Positions 9,339-26,082 of a DNA stretch of 45,789 nucleotides are shown in pieces. The stretch is from contig NZ_CAXBJS010000001.1 in the NCBI RefSeq assembly GCF_963976025.1, positions 1-45,789 on the forward strand, read 5' to 3'. How positions within the stretch are numbered: position 1 is the stretch's first letter; each line of letters begins with the position of its first letter. The DNA comes from an uncultured Arenimonas sp. Lineage in GTDB: Bacteria; Pseudomonadota; Gammaproteobacteria; Xanthomonadales; Xanthomonadaceae. The notes beneath the pieces are model-generated. The model was not told the DNA's origin. It ran no database searches and saw nothing but the letters and a program-made list of their open reading frames with translations. Both the position numbers and the translations under genes were made by a program.

Positions 9339-10754
9339 TCAAGGCGAGCGATTGGATTTGCCGCGACGCGGACGCGCGCCCAGCTTGCGGGTGACGGTGT
9401 TGCGGCCCAGGCCCAGCACTTCGGCGGCGTTCTGGCGGTGGCCGCCGGTGTGTTCGAGCGCGGTCTCCAACAGGGCCTGGTCGAAGGCTTCGCGCAGCGG
9501 CGCGTGCAGGCCGGTCTCGCCGCGGTCCAGGCGCGCGCGCACCTCCGAGGCCAGCGCCTGCTGCCAGGCCGGCGGTCCCGGCGCTTCGTCTCGCGCCATG
9601 GCCTTGGCCAGGTCGCGCGGGGTGATGGTGTCGCCGGGAGCCAGCACGGCCAGGCGCCAGCACAGGTTCTCCAGTTCGCGCACGTTGCCGGGCCAGTCGT
9701 GCTTCAACAACCGTTCCATCGCCGCCGTGTCGAAACGTTTCGGCGGCGCGTCGAGTTCGTCGCCGGCCTGGGCCAGGAAACGCGCCGCCAGCGCCGGCAC
9801 GTCGGCCTTGCGCTCGCGCAGCGGCGGCAGGCGCAGGCGCACGACGTCGAGGCGGTGCAGCAGGTCGGCGCGGAAGGTGCCGGCGCGCACCTTGGCTTCC
9901 AGGTCCTGGTGGGTGGCGGCGATGACGCGCACGTCCACCTTGATCAGTTCGCGGCCACCGACGCGGTAGAACTCGCCTTCGGCCAGCACGCGCAGCAGGC
10001 GGGTCTGCAGGTTGGCCGGCATGTCGCCGATTTCGTCGAGGAACAGCGTGCCGCCGTGCGCCTGTTCGAAGCGGCCGACGTGGCGTTTGTTGGCGCCGGT
10101 GAAAGCGCCAGCCTCGTGGCCGAACAGTTCGCTTTCCAGCAGTTCGGCGGGAATGGCGGCGGTGTTGAGCGCCAGGTAGGGCCCGCGTGCGCGCGGCGAC
10201 TCGCGGTGCAGCGCGCGCGCCACCAGTTCCTTGCCGGTGCCGGTTTCGCCGGTGATCAGCACCGACAGTGGTGCCTGCGCCAGGCGGCCGATGGCGCGGA
10301 ACAGTTCGCGCATGGCCGGGGTGTCGCCGATCAGTTCGTCGCCGGTGGCGCTTGGTTCCTCGGCCACCGGTGAGGCATTCGTCGGCGGCAGCGCGCGTTC
10401 GACCAGCGCCACCGCTTCGTCGAGGTCGAAGGGTTTGGACAGGAATTCGTGGGCGCCGCCGCGGAAGGCGCCGGCGGTGCTGGCGACATCCGTGTAGGCC
10501 GACATGACCACCACGGGCAAATCGGGCTGCTGCGCCTTGAGTTGGTCCAGGAAGGCCAGGCCGTCGAGCCCCGGCATGCGCACGTCGGTGAACACCAGGT
10601 CGGGCTGTTCGCCGTCGGCCAGCGCGGCCAGTGCCTCGCGTGCGCCCTCGAAGGCCGACACCTTGTGGCCGGCGTCGCGCAGCGCCTGCACCAGCACGAA
10701 GCGCACGGTGCGGTCGTCGTCGATGACCCAGAGGTGGGCGGCCCGGGAGTTCAT
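9339..10754 (-). CDS. ntrC: Nitrogen regulation response regulator NtrC
   Basis: Receiver domain (IDDD, DVRMP), [31 protein letters not shown], Fis-type [11 protein letters not shown]. Confidence 0.95.
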
Positions 10755-10765
10755 GCCACCCAGTT

Positions 10766-10782
10766 TGCACCATTCGGGTGCA
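10766..10782. promoter_or_regulatory. Putative NtrC binding site
   Basis: TGCACCATTCGGGTGCA matches the TGCAC-N7-GTGCA palindrome and lies 11 bp upstream of the ntrC ATG. Confidence 0.7.
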
Positions 10783-10887: not shown

Positions 10888-13062
10888 TTGGACAGCCGTT
10901 TCAGTTACCGCGCCTTCCTGAGCTACAGCCACGCCGACAAGGCCTGGGCTGACTGGCTGCACCGACGGCTGGAGACCTACCGGCTGCCGGCCGCCATGGT
11001 TGGCCGCGAAAGCCCCTCGGGGCCGATACCTGCCCGGCTTGCACCGATCTTCCGCGATCGCGACGAGCTGGCCGCTGCGACCGATTTGTCGACCGAGATC
11101 GATGCCGCGCTGGCGCAATCGATGTTCCTGGTGGTGGTCTGCTCGCCGGCGGCGGCCCGTTCGCGCTGGATCGACGAGGAAATCGCCGCCTTCAAGCGCC
11201 TGCACGGCGAGGACCGCGTGCGCGCGATCATCGTCGACGGTGAGCCGCTCTCGGGGGACCCGGCCACTGAGTGTTTCCCCGCGTCGCTGCGCGTGCGTTT
11301 CAACGCGCGCGGCGAGCGCACGTCCCAGCCCGCCGAGCCGATCGCAGCCGATGCGCGCCGCCAGGGCGACGGCCGGAGGTTCGCATTCCTGAAGCTGGTC
11401 GCGGGCCTTTCCGGCGCGCGCCTGGACGAGCTGGTCCGGCGCGAGCAGAAGCGCAGGCACACGCGGCTTGCCGTGCTTTCGACGGCCCTCGCCGCGCTGG
11501 TGGTGGTGCTGTCGGCCCTGACCTGGGACGCGCTGCGCCAGCGCAACGCCGCCCGTCTCGCGCAGGCCGAGGCGCAGTTCCAGCGCGACGAGGCGCAAGG
11601 CCTGGTCGAGTTCATGCTCACCGACCTTCGCCAGCGCCTGGATGCCGTGGGCCGGCTGGACGTGCTGGAGGCGGTCGGCGAACGACTTTCGGCCACCTAC
11701 GCCCGCCAGGATCTTTCCCAGCTCGATGCCGACGCCCTGGGGCGTCGCGCGCGGGTCCAACTGCTCCTGGGCGAGATAGAAAGCACCCGCGGCAATCTTG
11801 ATGCCGCGCTTTCGCAGTACCGGCAGGCCGCGGCAACCACCGGTGAGCTGCTCGCGCGCGAACCAGGTGACCCGCAGCGCATCTACGACCATGCGCAGTC
11901 GGTGTTCTGGGTCGGCCAGGTGGCCTGGCAGCGCGGCGAGGCTGATGTCGCCAGACTGCACTTCACGCAGTACCACGACTATGCGCGCCAGCTGGTCGAG
12001 CTCGATCCGGACAATGCCGACTGGCAGATGGAGCTCAATTACGGCCTGAGCAACCTTGGCACCCTGGCCATGGACCGTGGCGATGCCGTGGCGGCCGAGC
12101 GGCATTTCAGGGAGGCGCTCGAGGTCTCCCGGGCCCTTTCAGACACAGGGCCGGACGATGCCGACCGGATGATAAACACCGGTACCTCGCTGGCCTGGCT
12201 GGCCGACGCGCTGTTGCGCCAGGGCAAGCTGGCGCCGGCCGCCGGCTTGCGGGGAGAGGAAATCGCGCTCTACGAGCACTGGCTGGCCGGGCATCCGGCC
12301 GATGCCAACGTGCGCCAGCTGCTGGTGGATGCCCGATCCCGGCTGGCGCAGATCCACCTCGGCCTGGGCCTGCCGGACCAGGCCCGCAACGACGCCACGC
12401 TGGCCACGGCGCTCGCCGACGCACTGCTCGCCGGCGACCGGGAGAACATCGAATGGGTGGACCGCGCCTCGCTGGCGCATGCCGTCGCAGGCGAAGCCTA
12501 CCTTCACCTGGGCCAGCACGACCTGGCCCGGGCCTCGCTGCAGCGGGCGATGGGGATCGCCGAGGATTTCGTCGCCGGCAAGGGCGGACTTGAGCGCTCG
12601 CGCAGCCTGACCAGCACCCAACCGCGCCTCGTGCTGGCGGCACTTCATGCGCGGGAGGGTCGTGCCTCCGAGGCGCGGTCGATATACGCGGACGTAGCGA
12701 ACCGCTACCGCGACGACCAGGCCGCGGGCAACAGCCTGTACCCGGTCGCCCGGCGTCGTCTTGCCGAAGCGCTGGCGGGCCAGGTCCGGCTCGCCGGCAC
12801 CGGCGGGCCGGGCTGGCAGGACGTGGTCGCGCTGCTCGAGCCCGCTCGGGGACGACTGGCCCCTGAGGAAGCGGGGCTGCTGGCGGAGGCCTATGCCCGG
12901 ACTGGGCGCCTTGAAGAAGGTGCGGCGCTTTTCGCGCCGCTGCATGCCGCAGGCTACCGGCATCCGGATTTCATGGCCGTACTCGACCGGTTTCCTGCGT
13001 TGCTAATAGAAACCGGCACGACCGACCTCAACGATCCATCCCAAGGACGAACCAATGACTGA
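10888..13062 (+). CDS. TIR domain - hydrophobic (TM) helix - coiled coil - TPR-repeat protein (about 724 aa)
   Basis: YRAFLSYSHAD, IFRDRDEL and LVVVCSPAAARSRWIDEEI match the bacterial TIR pattern. A hydrophobic helix at 11467-11526 is followed by TPR-like helical repeats. The start (TTG 10888) is uncertain. Confidence 0.88.
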   Translation: MDSRFSYRAFLSYSHADKAWADWLHRRLETYRLPAAMVGRESPSGPIPARLAPIFRDRDELAAATDLSTEIDAALAQSMFLVVVCSPAAARSRWIDEEIAAFKRLHGEDRVRAIIVDGEPLSGDPATECFPASLRVRFNARGERTSQPAEPIAADARRQGDGRRFAFLKLVAGLSGARLDELVRREQKRRHTRLAVLSTALAALVVVLSALTWDALRQRNAARLAQAEAQFQRDEAQGLVEFMLTDLRQRLDAVGRLDVLEAVGERLSATYARQDLSQLDADALGRRARVQLLLGEIESTRGNLDAALSQYRQAAATTGELLAREPGDPQRIYDHAQSVFWVGQVAWQRGEADVARLHFTQYHDYARQLVELDPDNADWQMELNYGLSNLGTLAMDRGDAVAAERHFREALEVSRALSDTGPDDADRMINTGTSLAWLADALLRQGKLAPAAGLRGEEIALYEHWLAGHPADANVRQLLVDARSRLAQIHLGLGLPDQARNDATLATALADALLAGDRENIEWVDRASLAHAVAGEAYLHLGQHDLARASLQRAMGIAEDFVAGKGGLERSRSLTSTQPRLVLAALHAREGRASEARSIYADVANRYRDDQAAGNSLYPVARRRLAEALAGQVRLAGTGGPGWQDVVALLEPARGRLAPEEAGLLAEAYARTGRLEEGAALFAPLHAAGYRHPDFMAVLDRFPALLIETGTTDLNDPSQGRTND

Positions 13063-13651
13063 CCAAGGCAAGTCGGAGATGGACTCCGCGAACGCGGGGA
13101 GAGCCGCCATGGGCCTGCCCGGGCTCATCCTTACGCCAATCGAAGCCGCGGCATTGCCTGCGCACGTCGTGGGCGGGGCCAGCGTGACGCTCTCCCTGCG
13201 CGACAACGTGATGTGGTTCTCCGCCGCCGCCGCCGGCTACAACCCACCCAGCGGCCAGACGATGCTGGCGGCCGAAGTGCCGCCGCTGGTTATCCGCACC
13301 GATGGCGGTGATATCGACCTCACGGGGTTTCCGCCCGGCGACGTGCAATTGACGGTGCTGATCGACGACAGCGTGTTCAACGGTGGCTACCGGATCCCCG
13401 CCGACGCGTGGCAGGCCGTGGCGCTGGCGGCGAATCCCGTGGGTGGCCCGCCCAGTACGCCGGTGTTCGGCCAGGCGAACTGGCCCGCCAACTTCGGGGC
13501 GCCCGTGGTGGCAGCCGACCAGCGTTCGGTTACGTGGATCGACACGGAGTCCGACCAGAACGTCTACGAGTACTCCCTGGCGCTCGATGGCCCGAACGGC
13601 CGCATCGTCATCGACCCCAAGATCAAGCCCGGCGGAAGCACCAACCGCTGA
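13055..13651 (+). CDS. Small beta-rich hypothetical protein with C-terminal DPKIKPGGSTNR (paralog 1)
   Basis: ATG overlaps the TIR stop by 8 nt with AAGGA upstream; alternative ATG at 13109. Paralogous to the next gene. No signal peptide. Confidence 0.85.
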   Translation: MTDQGKSEMDSANAGRAAMGLPGLILTPIEAAALPAHVVGGASVTLSLRDNVMWFSAAAAGYNPPSGQTMLAAEVPPLVIRTDGGDIDLTGFPPGDVQLTVLIDDSVFNGGYRIPADAWQAVALAANPVGGPPSTPVFGQANWPANFGAPVVAADQRSVTWIDTESDQNVYEYSLALDGPNGRIVIDPKIKPGGSTNR

Positions 13652-13683
13652 GATCCCGCGGCAGCGCCTGAAGGAGCAAGAAG

Positions 13684-14172
13684 ATGACGAGCAGCAATCC
13701 GAATGAGGTCGGCAGTGTCAACGTCGGCGTCAACCTCAAGGACGGCGTCCTGGGCTTTTCCTACCTGGGCGAGTCCTTCAGGACGCCTGCCGGTGGCGAA
13801 GTGTCCGGGATCGTGGCGCAAACCAACGGCGACATCGACCTGTCCAACACCCCGCACGGCGACGTCAGGATCACGGTGTCGCTGGAGGACTCCGCCTACG
13901 GCGCCGGCTGCCGGTTTCCGGGCGATCCATGGCAGGCCGTCGCCCTGGCCGCCGCCCCCGCCTCCCAGCCGCCGCCCCAGCCCGTATTCGACCAGGCACG
14001 CTGGCCTGCGAACTTCCTGCCGCCGACCGTCTCGGCCGACCGGCGCTCGGTGACCTGGGTGGATCTGGAAGCCGACCAGAAGGTTTACGAATACTCGGTC
14101 GCCGTCGACGGGCCCCATGGACGGGTGGTGTTGGATCCAAAGATCAAGCCCGGCGGAAGCACAAACCGCTGA
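13684..14172 (+). CDS. Small beta-rich hypothetical protein with C-terminal DPKIKPGGSTNR (paralog 2)
   Basis: AAGGAG RBS. Hand alignment gives 75/114 identities, ungapped, with paralog 1 from GDIDL to the C-terminus. Confidence 0.88.
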   Translation: MTSSNPNEVGSVNVGVNLKDGVLGFSYLGESFRTPAGGEVSGIVAQTNGDIDLSNTPHGDVRITVSLEDSAYGAGCRFPGDPWQAVALAAAPASQPPPQPVFDQARWPANFLPPTVSADRRSVTWVDLEADQKVYEYSVAVDGPHGRVVLDPKIKPGGSTNR

Positions 14173-14192: not shown

Positions 14193-15236
14193 CTAGTCCG
14201 GGGCGACTGCTTCGGGCGACGGCGCCGGCAGCAGCAAGGTGAACACCGTATGCCCCGGCCGCGAGCGGTAGCCCAGCGATCCCCCGTGTTCGCGTGCAAC
14301 CTGCTGGGCCAGCGGCAGGCCCAGGCCGGTGCCTTCGGCGCGGCCGCTGACCAGGGGCAGGAAGATGCGTTCGGCCAGGTCGTCGGGAACTCCGCGGCCG
14401 TCGTCGGCGATTTCCACGCGCAGGGCCAGGCGGTGGCTGGTGTCGCCGATCAGCACGTGGTGTTCGGCGCGGGTGCGCAGCCAGACGTTGGACGCGCCCG
14501 ATTCAAGCGCATTGCGCACCAGGTTCCACAGCGCCTGCACCAGGCGGTCGGCGTCGCCGGCGAATTCCGGCAGTGACGGATCAAAGTCGCGCACCAGTTT
14601 CACGGCCCAGCCGGCTTCGACTTCGGCCAGCTGGCGCACGCGTTCAAGCACGGCGTGGATGTTGGTGGGTTCGAAGTCGCGCGGCGGCGCCGGATTCATC
14701 AGGCGGTCCACCAGCGCCGCGAGGCGATCGACTTCGGCGCTGATCAGCTGCACGAGTTCGGTGGACTCTTCGCCTTCGACGCGGCGCGCCAGCAACTGCG
14801 CGGCGCCCTTCATGCCGGCCAGCGGGTTGCGGATTTCGTGGGCCAGGCCCTTGAGCGCGGCCGACAGCGCCGCCGGCAGGGCGGTGGCGGGGTCTTCGCC
14901 GGGGAATTCGTCGGCCGGATGGGCTTCGAGCCACAGGCCGCCGTCTTCGCCGCGCGCCAGCCACAGGTCGGCAAACCGTTCGCTGCCACCCGGGCTGGCC
15001 AGGCGGGCGCGGCGCACGCGCAGGGCGCCGCCGGTGTCGGGCAGGCGCGGCAGCAGTTCGGCCAGGCGGTCGCCTTCGGCGTCGAGTTCGGCCAGGGACA
15101 GACCGTGCAGTCGGCGCGCGCTGACGCCCAGCCAGCTGGCGAAGGCGGGCGTGCAGCCGGCGAGCTTGCCTTCGGCGTCCAGCCAGGCGAGCGGCGTGGC
15201 CAGTTGGTCCAGGGACGGGGGCGCGGCGGGCGACAT
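14193..15236 (-). CDS. ntrB: Nitrogen regulation histidine kinase NtrB
   Basis: PAS-like N-terminus; H-box GLAHEIRNPL, DPSLP, NLVRNA, IFLPLVSGRAEGTGLGL, SRPGHTVF. Confidence 0.93.
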   Translation of the reverse strand: MSPAAPPSLDQLATPLAWLDAEGKLAGCTPAFASWLGVSARRLHGLSLAELDAEGDRLAELLPRLPDTGGALRVRRARLASPGGSERFADLWLARGEDGGLWLEAHPADEFPGEDPATALPAALSAALKGLAHEIRNPLAGMKGAAQLLARRVEGEESTELVQLISAEVDRLAALVDRLMNPAPPRDFEPTNIHAVLERVRQLAEVEAGWAVKLVRDFDPSLPEFAGDADRLVQALWNLVRNALESGASNVWLRTRAEHHVLIGDTSHRLALRVEIADDGRGVPDDLAERIFLPLVSGRAEGTGLGLPLAQQVAREHGGSLGYRSRPGHTVFTLLLPAPSPEAVAPD

Positions 15237-15276
15237 GCCCGCAAGCATAGTGGAGCCGGCGGCGACCGCGCTGCCC

Positions 15277-23033: not shown

Positions 23034-23049
23034 TGCAAGGGGCGTGCCA
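23034..23049 (-). promoter_or_regulatory. Sigma-54 promoter of glnA
   Basis: Minus strand TGGCACGCCCCTTGCA is a canonical -24/-12 element. Confidence 0.88.
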
Positions 23050-23111: not shown

Positions 23112-23128
23112 TGCACCATCATGGTGCT
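23112..23128. promoter_or_regulatory. NtrC enhancer site for glnA
   Basis: TGCACCATCATGGTGCT, about 60-80 bp upstream of the -24 element. Confidence 0.8.
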
Positions 23129-24044: not shown

Positions 24045-24066
24045 CCGCGGCCCTGGCCGCGGTTTA
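24045..24066. terminator. Short hairpin between convergent genes
   Basis: CCGCGGC-CCTG-GCCGCGG followed by TTTA. Confidence 0.35.
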
Positions 24067-26082
24067 TTCGGCCGGGTAGCCCAGGCGTGCGGCCACCGGC
24101 GCGAGCAGGGCGAACTCTTCGGCCAGGCTTTCGCGGTAGTGGCGCCAATGGCCGGCCGGCAGGCGCTGGCCGGGGCCGAACACGCCCGGCAGCGGGCTTT
24201 CCAGGCCCAGGGCCTGTTCGATGCGCTGCGCGGCTTCGCCGGCGTCGGCGTCCAGGCGCACCAGGTCGATGCGGCCCGAGACTTCGGCTTCGTCGGCCAC
24301 GGCCTCCAGCACATCCGCCAGCCACTGCGCCGAACGGCTGATTTCCGGCAGGAAGTGATAGTTCTGCAGGCTGCCGTGCAGCATCCAGTTCAGCAGCGCG
24401 TCGCGCGGGTCGGTCAGCAGCACCAGCACCTTGGCGCCGCCCAGGGTGGCGAAGGTGTAGGCGTCCACGTGCGGCAGCCAGTCGCGTGATTCGGCCGGGT
24501 CCAGGCCGGCGGCACGCAGCGAGGCTTCCCAGCGCGACGCGGTGCCGGCTTCCGGGTGGCCCGGGGCGCGACGGCGAACGCCGTAGCCGTCGCCGTCGGC
24601 TTCGCTGCCGATGCGGTCCAGGCGCAGCTTCGGGCCCAGCTGGGACTTGGCCTGGCGCAGCACGAACTCGGCGCGCACGCCCGGCGGCGACCACAGCAGC
24701 ATGCCGTCGATCTTGCCGGCGGGCGCTTCACCGGCCGGCACCGCCGGCGGCGGCAGGACCTGGCCAGGCACCGGCAGGCGCACCATCTCGCGCCAGACCT
24801 CGGCGGCTTCGGCGTGGCGACCCAGGGCGTCGAGCGACAGGCCGCGCCAGCTGAGCAGGGTGCGCCGGGCCGGGCCGTCCTTGGCCTGCGCCAGCAGGCG
24901 TTCGGCGCGGGCCAGAGACAGGGCCGGGTCGTCGCGGAATTCGGCGCGCAGCTTGTGCAGGTTGGCGGTGTAGAGCTCGGGATTGATCGCCAGCGCCTGG
25001 TCGGCGTACTGGCCGGCCTGTTCGGGCTGGCCCTGGGCGTCGTGGTAGGCACTGAGCATTTCCAGGCAGGCCGCCGACTGCGGCATGGCCTTGAACCAGC
25101 GGTCGAGCACGGGCTTGGCTTCTTCGCCCAGCATGCCGGCCACGTTCAGGCGCACCTTCCACAGTTCGTCCTGGTCGGGGGCCTTCTCCAGCGCGGCTTC
25201 GGCGCGGACCTTGGCTTCGTCCGGGCGGCCGCCGCGCACCAGCAGCGCCACGGCCTGGGCCAGCACCGGCGCCTGGGTCGGGTGGGCGTCGAGCACGGCG
25301 CACAGGTCGGCCACGGCGTCGGCGTCGCGGCCGTAGTCGATAAGCAGTTCGGAACGCAGCACGCGGGCCATCGGGTCGGCCGGCGCGATGGCGATCAGCT
25401 CGTCCAGGGTGGCCAGGGTTTCTTCGGCCTTGCCCTGGCGGCGGCGGGCTTCGACCAGCGCGCGCAGGGTGGTCGGGGCGCGCGAATTGTCCAGGCGCAG
25501 GGCGTTGACCAGCGCCTGTTCGGCGAAGGGCCACATGCCACGCGACAGGTAGGCCTGGCCCAGGGCCAGCTGGGCGGCGGCGAGGTTGGGGTCGGCTTCG
25601 GCGGCGGCGGTGAAACACTTCAGCGCCTTGTCGCCGTCGCCCTGGGCCTGGGCCACGTAACCTTCGATGACGCGCACCTGCGGGTGCTCGGCGTTCACGC
25701 GCTGGGCCAGGCGCAGGTTGCGCTCGGCCTCGGCCCGGTCGCCGCGGCCCAGGGCCAGGTGGGCCAGCAGCACGTAGGCGCCCAGCTGGTTCGGGTCCAG
25801 CACCAGGGCGTCCTGCAGGCCACGGATGGCGCCGGCGGCGTCGCCTTCGGCCAGCTTCAGGGTGGCCAGGCTGAAATGGTGGGCCGCGACGTCGGGGGCC
25901 AGTTCAAGCGCGCGCTCGAAGCCCTGGCGGGCACCGGCCAGGTCGCCCTTCTGCTGCAGGCACACGCCCAGCAGGTGGTGGGCGGAGGCGTTGTCGGGCT
26001 CGGCGGCGAGGGTGTCGCGGGCGGCGGCCAGCGCGGCGGCGATGTCGCCACGGCGCATGGCTTCGATGATGTCGACGATCAT
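24064..26082 (-). CDS. TPR-repeat protein with a degenerate sulfotransferase-like C-terminal domain
   Basis: Many TPR repeats (e.g. AHHLLGVCLQQKGDLAGARQGFERALELAP); C-terminal TDPRDALLNW. Confidence 0.8.
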   Translation of the reverse strand: MIVDIIEAMRRGDIAAALAAARDTLAAEPDNASAHHLLGVCLQQKGDLAGARQGFERALELAPDVAAHHFSLATLKLAEGDAAGAIRGLQDALVLDPNQLGAYVLLAHLALGRGDRAEAERNLRLAQRVNAEHPQVRVIEGYVAQAQGDGDKALKCFTAAAEADPNLAAAQLALGQAYLSRGMWPFAEQALVNALRLDNSRAPTTLRALVEARRRQGKAEETLATLDELIAIAPADPMARVLRSELLIDYGRDADAVADLCAVLDAHPTQAPVLAQAVALLVRGGRPDEAKVRAEAALEKAPDQDELWKVRLNVAGMLGEEAKPVLDRWFKAMPQSAACLEMLSAYHDAQGQPEQAGQYADQALAINPELYTANLHKLRAEFRDDPALSLARAERLLAQAKDGPARRTLLSWRGLSLDALGRHAEAAEVWREMVRLPVPGQVLPPPAVPAGEAPAGKIDGMLLWSPPGVRAEFVLRQAKSQLGPKLRLDRIGSEADGDGYGVRRRAPGHPEAGTASRWEASLRAAGLDPAESRDWLPHVDAYTFATLGGAKVLVLLTDPRDALLNWMLHGSLQNYHFLPEISRSAQWLADVLEAVADEAEVSGRIDLVRLDADAGEAAQRIEQALGLESPLPGVFGPGQRLPAGHWRHYRESLAEEFALLAPVAARLGYPAE

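Follow-up and report, generated by a model that had tools for sequence, protein, structure and literature searches.

A gene for a predicted TIR-TPR membrane receptor with DP-EP-like partners in Arenimonas: a candidate input to a Thoeris-like relay

What a gene for an apparent membrane receptor is doing beside two small genes whose products end in the same tail is the question posed by a three-gene module in an uncultured Arenimonas sp. (contig NZ_CAXBJS010000001.1, positions 1 to 45,789; the whole of this stretch of 45,789 nucleotides was analysed and is called the window here). Gene 1 (10888..13062, + strand; 724 residues from a TTG start) encodes a TIR domain, a predicted membrane helix and a TPR solenoid, and is overlapped for 8 nucleotides by gene 2 (13055..13651, +; 198 residues), with gene 3 (13684..14172, +; 162 residues) following after a gap of 32 nucleotides. 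The two small genes encode DP-EP-like beta-sandwich proteins, paralogues that are 56% identical (89/160) and share all of their last 12 residues. The module is a real, widespread and uncharacterised variant of TIR signalling, and the reading preferred here, at a rough probability of 0.42, is that it supplies the input of a Thoeris-like relay, one that would be set off outside the cytoplasm and have a predicted SLOG-like/double-SLATT membrane effector as its output. The genes, their domains, the homology of the small proteins to SO1698 of Shewanella oneidensis and the genetic coupling of the three components are computed results. What is added here is the genome-wide tie to the SLOG-like/SLATT gene, the matching of partner tails within loci and the comparison with SO1698 at the level of residues.

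An earlier note, made from the letters of this DNA, had described three co-oriented, tightly packed genes, the first with a TIR domain, a hydrophobic helix and TPR repeats, and the others beta-rich paralogues with a common tail. That description stands, the layout from the gene calls, gene 1 from Pfam, hydropathy and a structural model, and the small proteins from their alignment and a beta-sandwich model.

Receptors and partners occur together

The note had also expected the small proteins to be found with TIR/TPR receptors, and they are, every locus of the partner family with upstream DNA having one. Seen from the partner side, the receptor lies directly upstream in 5/5 genome loci and upstream in 3/6 metagenome loci, some of them duplicates, the other three of which begin at or near a contig end; in a further genome (G075) it is upstream of the partner as well. 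From the receptor side, 60 loci were fetched out of the 67 best loci outside the module's own. Of the seven omitted, five had shown no neighbour with the tail motif in an earlier scan, and the other two lie at the end of a contig. By a strict rule, 33 of the 60 have a partner (one likely spurious) versus 0/400 in the control. With a looser rule that asks for a co-oriented gene with a P-x-[IV]-x-N tail, the count is 42/60, or 42/67 when the omitted loci are taken as misses, versus 6/600 random windows and 3/60 opposite strands; judged by eye, about 10 of the 18 misses have a variant Asp-Pro or Asp-x-x-Pro tail. Receptor-partner pairing is, then, widespread.

Where one locus has more than one partner, the tails tend to agree. 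Over 8 tail positions, the shared fraction is 0.78 for same-locus pairs (15 pairs, of which one locus gives three, and with the window pair and a pair from locus L005 added by hand) versus 0.49 between loci (1581 pairs), in statistics that treat kin as independent, and for pairs with bodies less than 30% identical the sharing is 0.74 within a locus versus 0.47-0.53 between. The partner tail looks matched to the receptor beside it.

The receptor

The TIR domain (about residues 7-175; 10906..11412, +) gives Pfam matches to TIR_2, at residues 10-117 (E 5.5e-13), and, above cut-off, to ThsB_TIR (E 7.3e-9). Its putative catalytic residue, Glu98 (11179-11181, +), is in a helix of the form S-x-W-x-x-x-E, of which Trp94 and Glu98 are invariant in an alignment of 93 sequences, the query included, picked from 120 listed homologues; we take this position to be that of the TIR catalytic Glu. 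A single membrane helix is predicted at residues 194-212 (11467..11523, +; mean Kyte-Doolittle hydropathy 2.4), where 83 of the 93 homologues have the strongest hydrophobic peak of the region. Since Lys and Arg are more frequent before the helix than after it in the homologues (means of 5.8 and 2.7), the TIR domain is predicted to be inside and the TPR part outside, in the periplasm. The TPR solenoid (residues 224-706; 11557..13005, +) is matched by TPR_12 (E 2.8e-10, Pfam), and the model of gene 1 (pLDDT 89) shows the TIR domain and a single long helix, after which a helical solenoid spans roughly residues 224-706. Fold matches to the solenoid are generic; those with the lowest root-mean-square deviation (rmsd) among the top matches are the peptide-binding TPRs of LGN/Pins (4a1s_B: rmsd 3.9, TM-score by target 0.75), which are likewise a generic repeat match. 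The receptor family is large: members occur in 85 of 301 genomes of the order, and a search at E <= 1e-30 gives at least 3312 proteins.

The module's receptor is not the only one of its kind in its own genome. On another contig, C42, lies a second TIR-TM-TPR receptor (locus L143, contig positions 8791-11284, - strand), 35% identical over 521 residues, and the partner after it has a Sec-type leader and a different tail. Contig C51 has a long open reading frame (ORF) whose TPR part is weakly similar to gene 1 (locus L144, contig positions 9073-12528, - strand); it adjoins an FHA-like ORF and a response regulator and is probably a kinase-TPR receptor.

The partners as distant relatives of SO1698

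Genes 2 and 3 have no match in Pfam, NCBIfam or PADLOC. Neither they nor 20 close homologues reach PF08985 (DP-EP, formerly DUF1888; cut-off 25 bits), and PF20301 (pNTSase1) gave no Pfam match to the small proteins or to the homologues scanned. Distant partners score E 0.008-0.0008 against PF08985, 8 of 52 being at E <= 1, and in clusters of look-alikes in the Atlas, DP-EP or pNTSase1 is found in 10-16% of members (pNTSase1 in 11-16%). To judge from the Pfam name pNTSase1, a related domain seems to have been catalogued before; a literature search found no paper describing it. A scan of 301 genomes of the class with PF08985 and PF20301 gave no match and was uninformative, its controls being silent too.

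The model of gene 3 (pLDDT 88) is a beta-sandwich for which the 12 best Foldseek matches are all chains of SO1698 (best E 2.6e-6, labelled aspartic peptidase), and in a wide fold search over 48,161 chains SO1698 is again best (Z 9.6, rmsd 2.8, 114 residues aligned), with MakD (Z 8.8) and PixA (Z 7.5) next. A profile of 52 receptor-adjacent partner domains, which matches the window's partner family at 97.4%, finds SO1698 among PDB sequences (E 1.9e-6), and in the alignment the Asp-Pro tail of SO1698 is matched with that of the family; the same search with a close-family profile or a single domain from locus L018 did not find SO1698, only the wider profile reaching it. Genes 2 and 3 are distant relatives of DP-EP and not members of PF08985. 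Foldseek puts gene 3 in the SO1698 fold, and the view of the earlier note that the small proteins have no recognisable catalytic motif gives way, their relatives being SO1698/DP-EP with a candidate catalytic arrangement.

SO1698 is described as a self-cleaving endopeptidase and reported to cleave at low pH (PMC11655445). Its PDB entries (3N55, 3NJF-3NJN) are informative in that the deposited chains have 119 residues for the wild type and for Q118A, Y26F, P115A and K98A, and 128 for D37A, S114A, D116A and P117A. This difference in length suggests that cleavage needs D37, S114, D116 and P117 and can dispense with K98, Y26, P115 and Q118. For three of the four needed residues (Asp37, Asp116 and Pro117, not Ser114) there are, by alignment, apparent equivalents in genes 2 and 3. 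The partner tail starts at an Asp-Pro that the profile alignments match to the SO1698 cut site: Asp187-Pro188 with an 11-residue tail in gene 2 (13613..13648, +), the Asp and Pro being invariant in 45/45 family sequences, and Asp151-Pro152 with the same tail in gene 3 (14134..14169, +; monoisotopic mass of the tail 1153.66). Asp37 is matched by eye to Asp86 of gene 2 (13310..13312, +) and Asp50 of gene 3 (13831..13833, +), each in a G-D-I motif, and this column, likewise mapped by eye from the alignments, has Asp in 27, Asn in 13, Glu in 3 and Ser in 2 of the 45. The likeness to SO1698 is one of beta-sandwich, a G-D-I motif as mapped by eye and a terminal Asp-Pro followed by a short tail. The differences are an identity of 16-18%, the lack of a Pfam DP-EP match for the window proteins, the loss of Ser114 and Lys98, Pro in SO1698 where the family tail has Asn, and, in the window's family, longer loops and many lipoprotein relatives. 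Self-cleavage of genes 2 and 3 is possible on this comparison.

Other partner arrangements are found. A protein of 385 residues (P0042) has two tandem DP-tail domains with a hydrophobic segment between them, at two loci (L039, L034) partners of about 350 residues upstream of the receptor have the DP-tail domain fused behind another domain, and in one genus (L027, L028, L032) a longer beta-rich repeat protein, of which the first 330 residues were seen, replaces the DP-tail partner just downstream of the receptor. A Marinicaulis locus (L005, 2103-4208) encodes two lipoprotein partners of 27% identity that end in the same 12 residues, and a short third frame there has a similar tail.

On which side of the membrane the partners would lie

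A lipobox is present in 27 of 45 family members, and 3 more look to be of Sec type, so that these partners would be on the same side as the TPR. Such exported relatives fit a partner that is ligand or co-sensor of an extracytoplasmic TPR. Gene 2 itself is orthologous to lipoproteins of 240 residues and is without their first 40 or so, its own signal peptide being missing. A second species (L001) has the short, signal-less form too, 92% conserved, and the short form of gene 3, also without signal, is found in 7 close homologues. The window's partners, having no signal peptide, are predicted to be across the membrane from the TPR, and signal-less partners would need either unconventional export or a breached envelope to meet it.

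A third component

Receptor loci without a partner drew attention to a recurring gene for a protein of about 570 residues with two SLATT-like regions and an N-terminal domain containing the motifs G-H-R, L-A-E-G-G-D, W-D-G and G-G-T, which we take to be SLOG signatures. It is within the fetched 7.7 kb at 37 of the 60 receptor loci, co-oriented at 35, and at locus L002 it stops 4 nucleotides before the start of a receptor 73% identical to gene 1. Among the 301 genomes of the order it occurs in 75 of the 85 that are receptor-positive versus 17 of the other 216, counts that, like those that follow, are raw and ignore kinship. All 70 genomes with a receptor at E <= 1e-55 carry it. One match is the rule (90 of 92 genomes), where receptors number one to three per genome, and patchiness within families is parallel for receptor and effector (7/41 and 7/41 in one family, 18/40 and 17/40 in another). 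Of the five genomes in which the close partner family occurs, four carry the gene. PADLOC had no model matching it, and a PDB search with a profile of its N-terminal domain gave no SLOG match.

In the genome of the window the candidate effector is unlinked and alone on contig C120 (2549-4282 of locus L142, - strand), between a copper-resistance-like cluster and ORFs that by eye look related to mobile elements; two receptor-partner sets are present for this one candidate effector. The earlier note had recorded no partner of the Thoeris, CBASS or Pycsar kinds. That remains so for the window, where the Pfam scan of its 35 ORFs (best 5 families per protein) showed no SIR2, Macro, CD-NTase or STAND match, and for the module, where Pfam, PADLOC and NCBIfam scans gave no CD-NTase, cyclase or STAND NTPase (CBASS, Pycsar and Avs); it does not hold for the genome, given the candidate Thoeris-like effector on another contig.

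A proposed relay

From these results we infer topology, binding, cleavage, messenger, output and purpose as follows. The TIR domain would be in the cytoplasm and the TPR, as predicted from sequence, in the periplasm. The C-terminal tail of a partner would be bound in the TPR groove, whether it is then still part of the protein or has been freed by self-cleavage; a role of the tail as the receptor's ligand is put forward tentatively, at a little under even odds, and its release by cleavage is doubtful. Binding would cluster the receptors, upon which the TIR domain would turn NAD+ into an ADP-ribose-derived messenger, a step suggested by the invariance of Glu98 and known TIR chemistry. The messenger would then gate the SLOG-like/SLATT protein, which would act on the membrane; a genome usually has a single such protein for its one to three receptors, and on the evidence of co-occurrence an output gated in this manner is probable. 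The most speculative step, proposed because both partners in this lineage are without export signals, is that they would reach the TPR only on breach of an envelope, whether of their own cell or of a lysed neighbor, making the module a damage alarm. Taken to its full extent the proposal becomes a widespread bacterial Toll-like damage-peptide immunity, in which DP-EP precursors self-cleave, short lineage-coded C-terminal peptides are released on envelope breach, membrane TIR-TPR receptors of that cell or of cells nearby sense these peptides outside the cytoplasm, and an NAD-derived messenger connects several receptors to a single SLOG-SLATT effector; as a joint claim this is unlikely.

Several observations weigh against the relay, quite apart from the kinship ignored by the tail-matching statistics. 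For the tails, those in the window share 9 of 12 codons versus 32/74 in the body, because of which it is kept as a possibility that gene conversion may have homogenised them, and the gene 3 model has tail residues 153-155 in a strand, so that tail conservation may be partly structural. For cleavage, the position of Ser114 is Val or Ile (Val149 in gene 3), with Ser in 1 of 45, which leaves self-cleavage of genes 2 and 3 uncertain; that of Lys98, presumably the isopeptide partner of Asp116 in SO1698, is Glu (Glu136), with no Lys in the 45. The residue before the Pro is Asp in only 35 of 52 wider partners (Asn in 10, His in 3, Arg in 2, Ala in 1 and Thr in 1), and cleavage cannot then be universal. 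For location, both window partners are among the 15 of 45 family members without a signal peptide, 27 of 50 wider partners have no signal flagged by a crude score, and a second hydrophobic peak of at least 1.6 in 35 of the 93 receptors is why receptor topology stays a prediction. For the effector, its matches to SLATT_1 and SLATT_3 are all below cut-off (best E 3.6e-6), support for SLOG consists of the motifs, an Atlas lead of 0.77 and Pfam matches that 2 of 30 members give at E 0.013-0.11, and the copy in the window's genome has no NCBIfam match. G075, which is 99% complete, has receptor and partner with no effector match by the query used. Finally, Pfam and PADLOC find no known defence gene in the window flanks of the module.

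What else could the module be? The main rival reading has the partners as constitutive co-receptors or brakes, bound intact to the TPR and feeding the same downstream relay; the receptor would fire once a foreign molecule attaches to the beta-sandwich or once its partner is lost through removal or degradation. Much is compatible with this: the tethering of many orthologues in the envelope as lipoproteins, partner bodies so diverse (14% mean column identity) as to recall ligand-binding modules, the absence of Ser114 and of a universal Asp, and, as a point that also tells against tail recognition, the closer tracking of TPR identity with partner body (rho 0.46) than with tail (0.35). It is nevertheless rather unlikely, since tails within a locus match even where bodies are less than 30% identical and cytoplasmic partners such as those of the window would be unable to hold a periplasmic TPR constitutively. 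A different purpose for the same parts, kin or cell-density signalling with the tail as a lineage-specific peptide signal and a non-lethal output, would accord with a module that window scans place outside any defence island, that is stable in whole families (34/40 genomes in one), and that has lineage-specific tails and several receptors for a single effector. Set against these are the patchiness within the genus, where the close partner family is in 5 of 82 other genomes and the module occupies a variable slot, and the description of SLATT effectors as cell-killing membrane proteins in a preprint (bioRxiv 10.64898/2025.12.03.692087), and purely social signalling seems improbable.

That the TIR domain is itself the effector, depleting NAD+ on clustering, or a non-enzymatic adaptor, with the SLOG-like/SLATT protein serving other TIR proteins, gains from the effector gene being unlinked here, not found in G075 and found in 17 genomes without a receptor; in the face of the 70/70 co-occurrence, the linkage at 37/60 loci and the 4-nucleotide junction in a close orthologue it is given little credence. 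Still less is given to an uncoupled or decaying module, one in which the signal of gene 2 has been lost, the partners never reach the receptor and they are only self-assembling beta-sandwiches like PixA and MakD with a structural last strand. Neither partner has an export signal, and those two proteins are the next in the fold search, as such decay would have it, yet none of the three frames is broken, gene 2 in its signal-less form has the conserved counterpart in another species noted above, and signal-less partners are common across the order.

Relation to known systems

Thoeris systems, as described in the same preprint, are operons of TIR plus effector that respond to phage infection; in types I, III and VII a TIR signal generator is combined with a SIR2-SLOG, SLOG or SLATT effector, TIR with SLATT (type VII) and TIR with SLOG (type I) being validated signalling pairs (bioRxiv 10.64898/2025.12.03.692087). 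Thoeris precedent for a TIR relay is also given in PMC9503650. The module is like these three types in having a TIR domain with a conserved Glu and a genetic tie to a protein that is both SLOG-like and SLATT-like. It is unlike them in that its TIR domain is the head of what is predicted to be a membrane receptor, with the TPR solenoid outside, that it adds a dedicated DP-EP-like partner, and that the effector can be unlinked and shared, being outside the module operon in this genome and near the receptor in L002 and 37/60 loci. PADLOC recognises the TIR part of the module (E 2e-6) and no complete system, and no NCBIfam Thoeris model passed its cut-off (ThcB4 at 11.8 bits versus 220). By the tests run, the module belongs to none of the described Thoeris types. 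A literature search showed no description of it among the papers listed, with the proviso that the neighbourhood may be on record already in Osipiuk et al. (2012, J Biol Chem 287:19452), in Burroughs et al. (2015), in Burroughs and Aravind (2020) or in the bioRxiv supplements; DP-EP together with TIR was not found either, nor was a relevant use of DP-EP, and SO1698 only in one biotechnology use.

Beyond bacteria, the parallels are ones of analogy. Toll has an outer repeat solenoid, one membrane helix and an inner TIR domain, and its ligand Spaetzle is cut from a precursor; the plant PROPEP precursors of Pep peptides lack a signal and are released on damage. The likeness is in layout for Toll, in a ligand cut from a precursor, and in release on damage for Pep, and there is no homology outside TIR. 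Compared with Toll, the module has TPR rather than leucine-rich repeats, a candidate self-cleaving precursor and a TIR domain predicted to be enzymatic rather than an adaptor. In the presumed mode of binding there is a parallel with the RRNPP receptors (Rap, NprR, PlcR), cytoplasmic proteins without TIR domain or membrane helix whose TPR groove binds a short extended peptide. A groove for a short peptide is what they and LGN/Pins would have in common with gene 1; LGN/Pins provide the lowest rmsd noted above, whereas none of the TPR fold matches listed is an RRNPP protein. On the partner side, the inclusion proteins PixA/AidA and Vibrio MakD have a related beta-sandwich, differing in an identity of 7-11% and in that no sequence link was found.

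The interest is that a TIR domain is apparently connected across the membrane with a TPR sensor on the outer side, and that this sensor has a partner of its own, in the layout of animal Toll. If the proposal is true, self-cleaving proteins of the DP-EP/SO1698 type gain a biological role and there is damage-peptide immunity between bacterial cells. The set to be tested is compact, comprising a peptide of 11 residues together with a single Glu, a single Asp-Pro and a single effector gene.

Gene calls and genomic setting

The module is between ntrC (9339..10754, -) and ntrB (14193..15248, -), both assigned by Pfam scan, and on the strand opposite to both. The ORF lister gave gene 1 a long form from an ATG at 10504, which was rejected because of its overlap with ntrC on the other strand; the TTG at 10888 is favoured, as close homologues of about 720 residues begin to align at its residues 1-7. 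G+C at third codon positions is 0.83-0.87 in genes 1-3, like the flanks (0.86-0.89 in ntrB and ntrC), and the closest named relatives are Arenimonas records. RNA runs do not support expression, with shares of 0.00-0.11 and only short contig pieces (348 nucleotides of gene 2, 324 of gene 1). A scan for sigma-70 promoters found none, and a sigma-54-like site at 10754-10768 was dropped, its conserved GG being absent and its score within chance. Elsewhere in the window, at 24064-26082, is a 672-residue multi-TPR protein (TPR_19 E 6e-22) for which tblastn shows no relation to the module.

The gap between ntrC and gene 1 contains an NtrC-type palindrome (10766..10782, no strand), one of two such boxes in the window, where 0.2 are expected. 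The other (23112-23128) precedes glnA, as does a perfect sigma-54 consensus at 23035-23049. Nitrogen control specific to the module was considered and rejected: a box is upstream of ntrC in 18 of 30 ntrC loci compared, 16 of these have no receptor, and for this reason it is assigned to ntrC itself. It is present in 15 of 16 loci in which ntrB is non-adjacent or not visible, as well as in the window, and in 2 of 14 with ntrB adjacent, as if ntrC gains its own control where the operon is split. The ntrB-ntrC junction is a variable slot in the genus: in the same 30 loci, ntrB is within 200 nucleotides in 14 and at 1.3 kb in 1, a receptor is there in 2, and the other 13 have no ntrB in the upstream DNA available (at most 1.5 kb) and other genes in its place. 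By eye, the cargo varies with species (L053-L067, L072, L074) and includes an RHS fragment, a type I methylase, an RES-like protein, an extracytoplasmic function (ECF) sigma pair, MerR and proteases.

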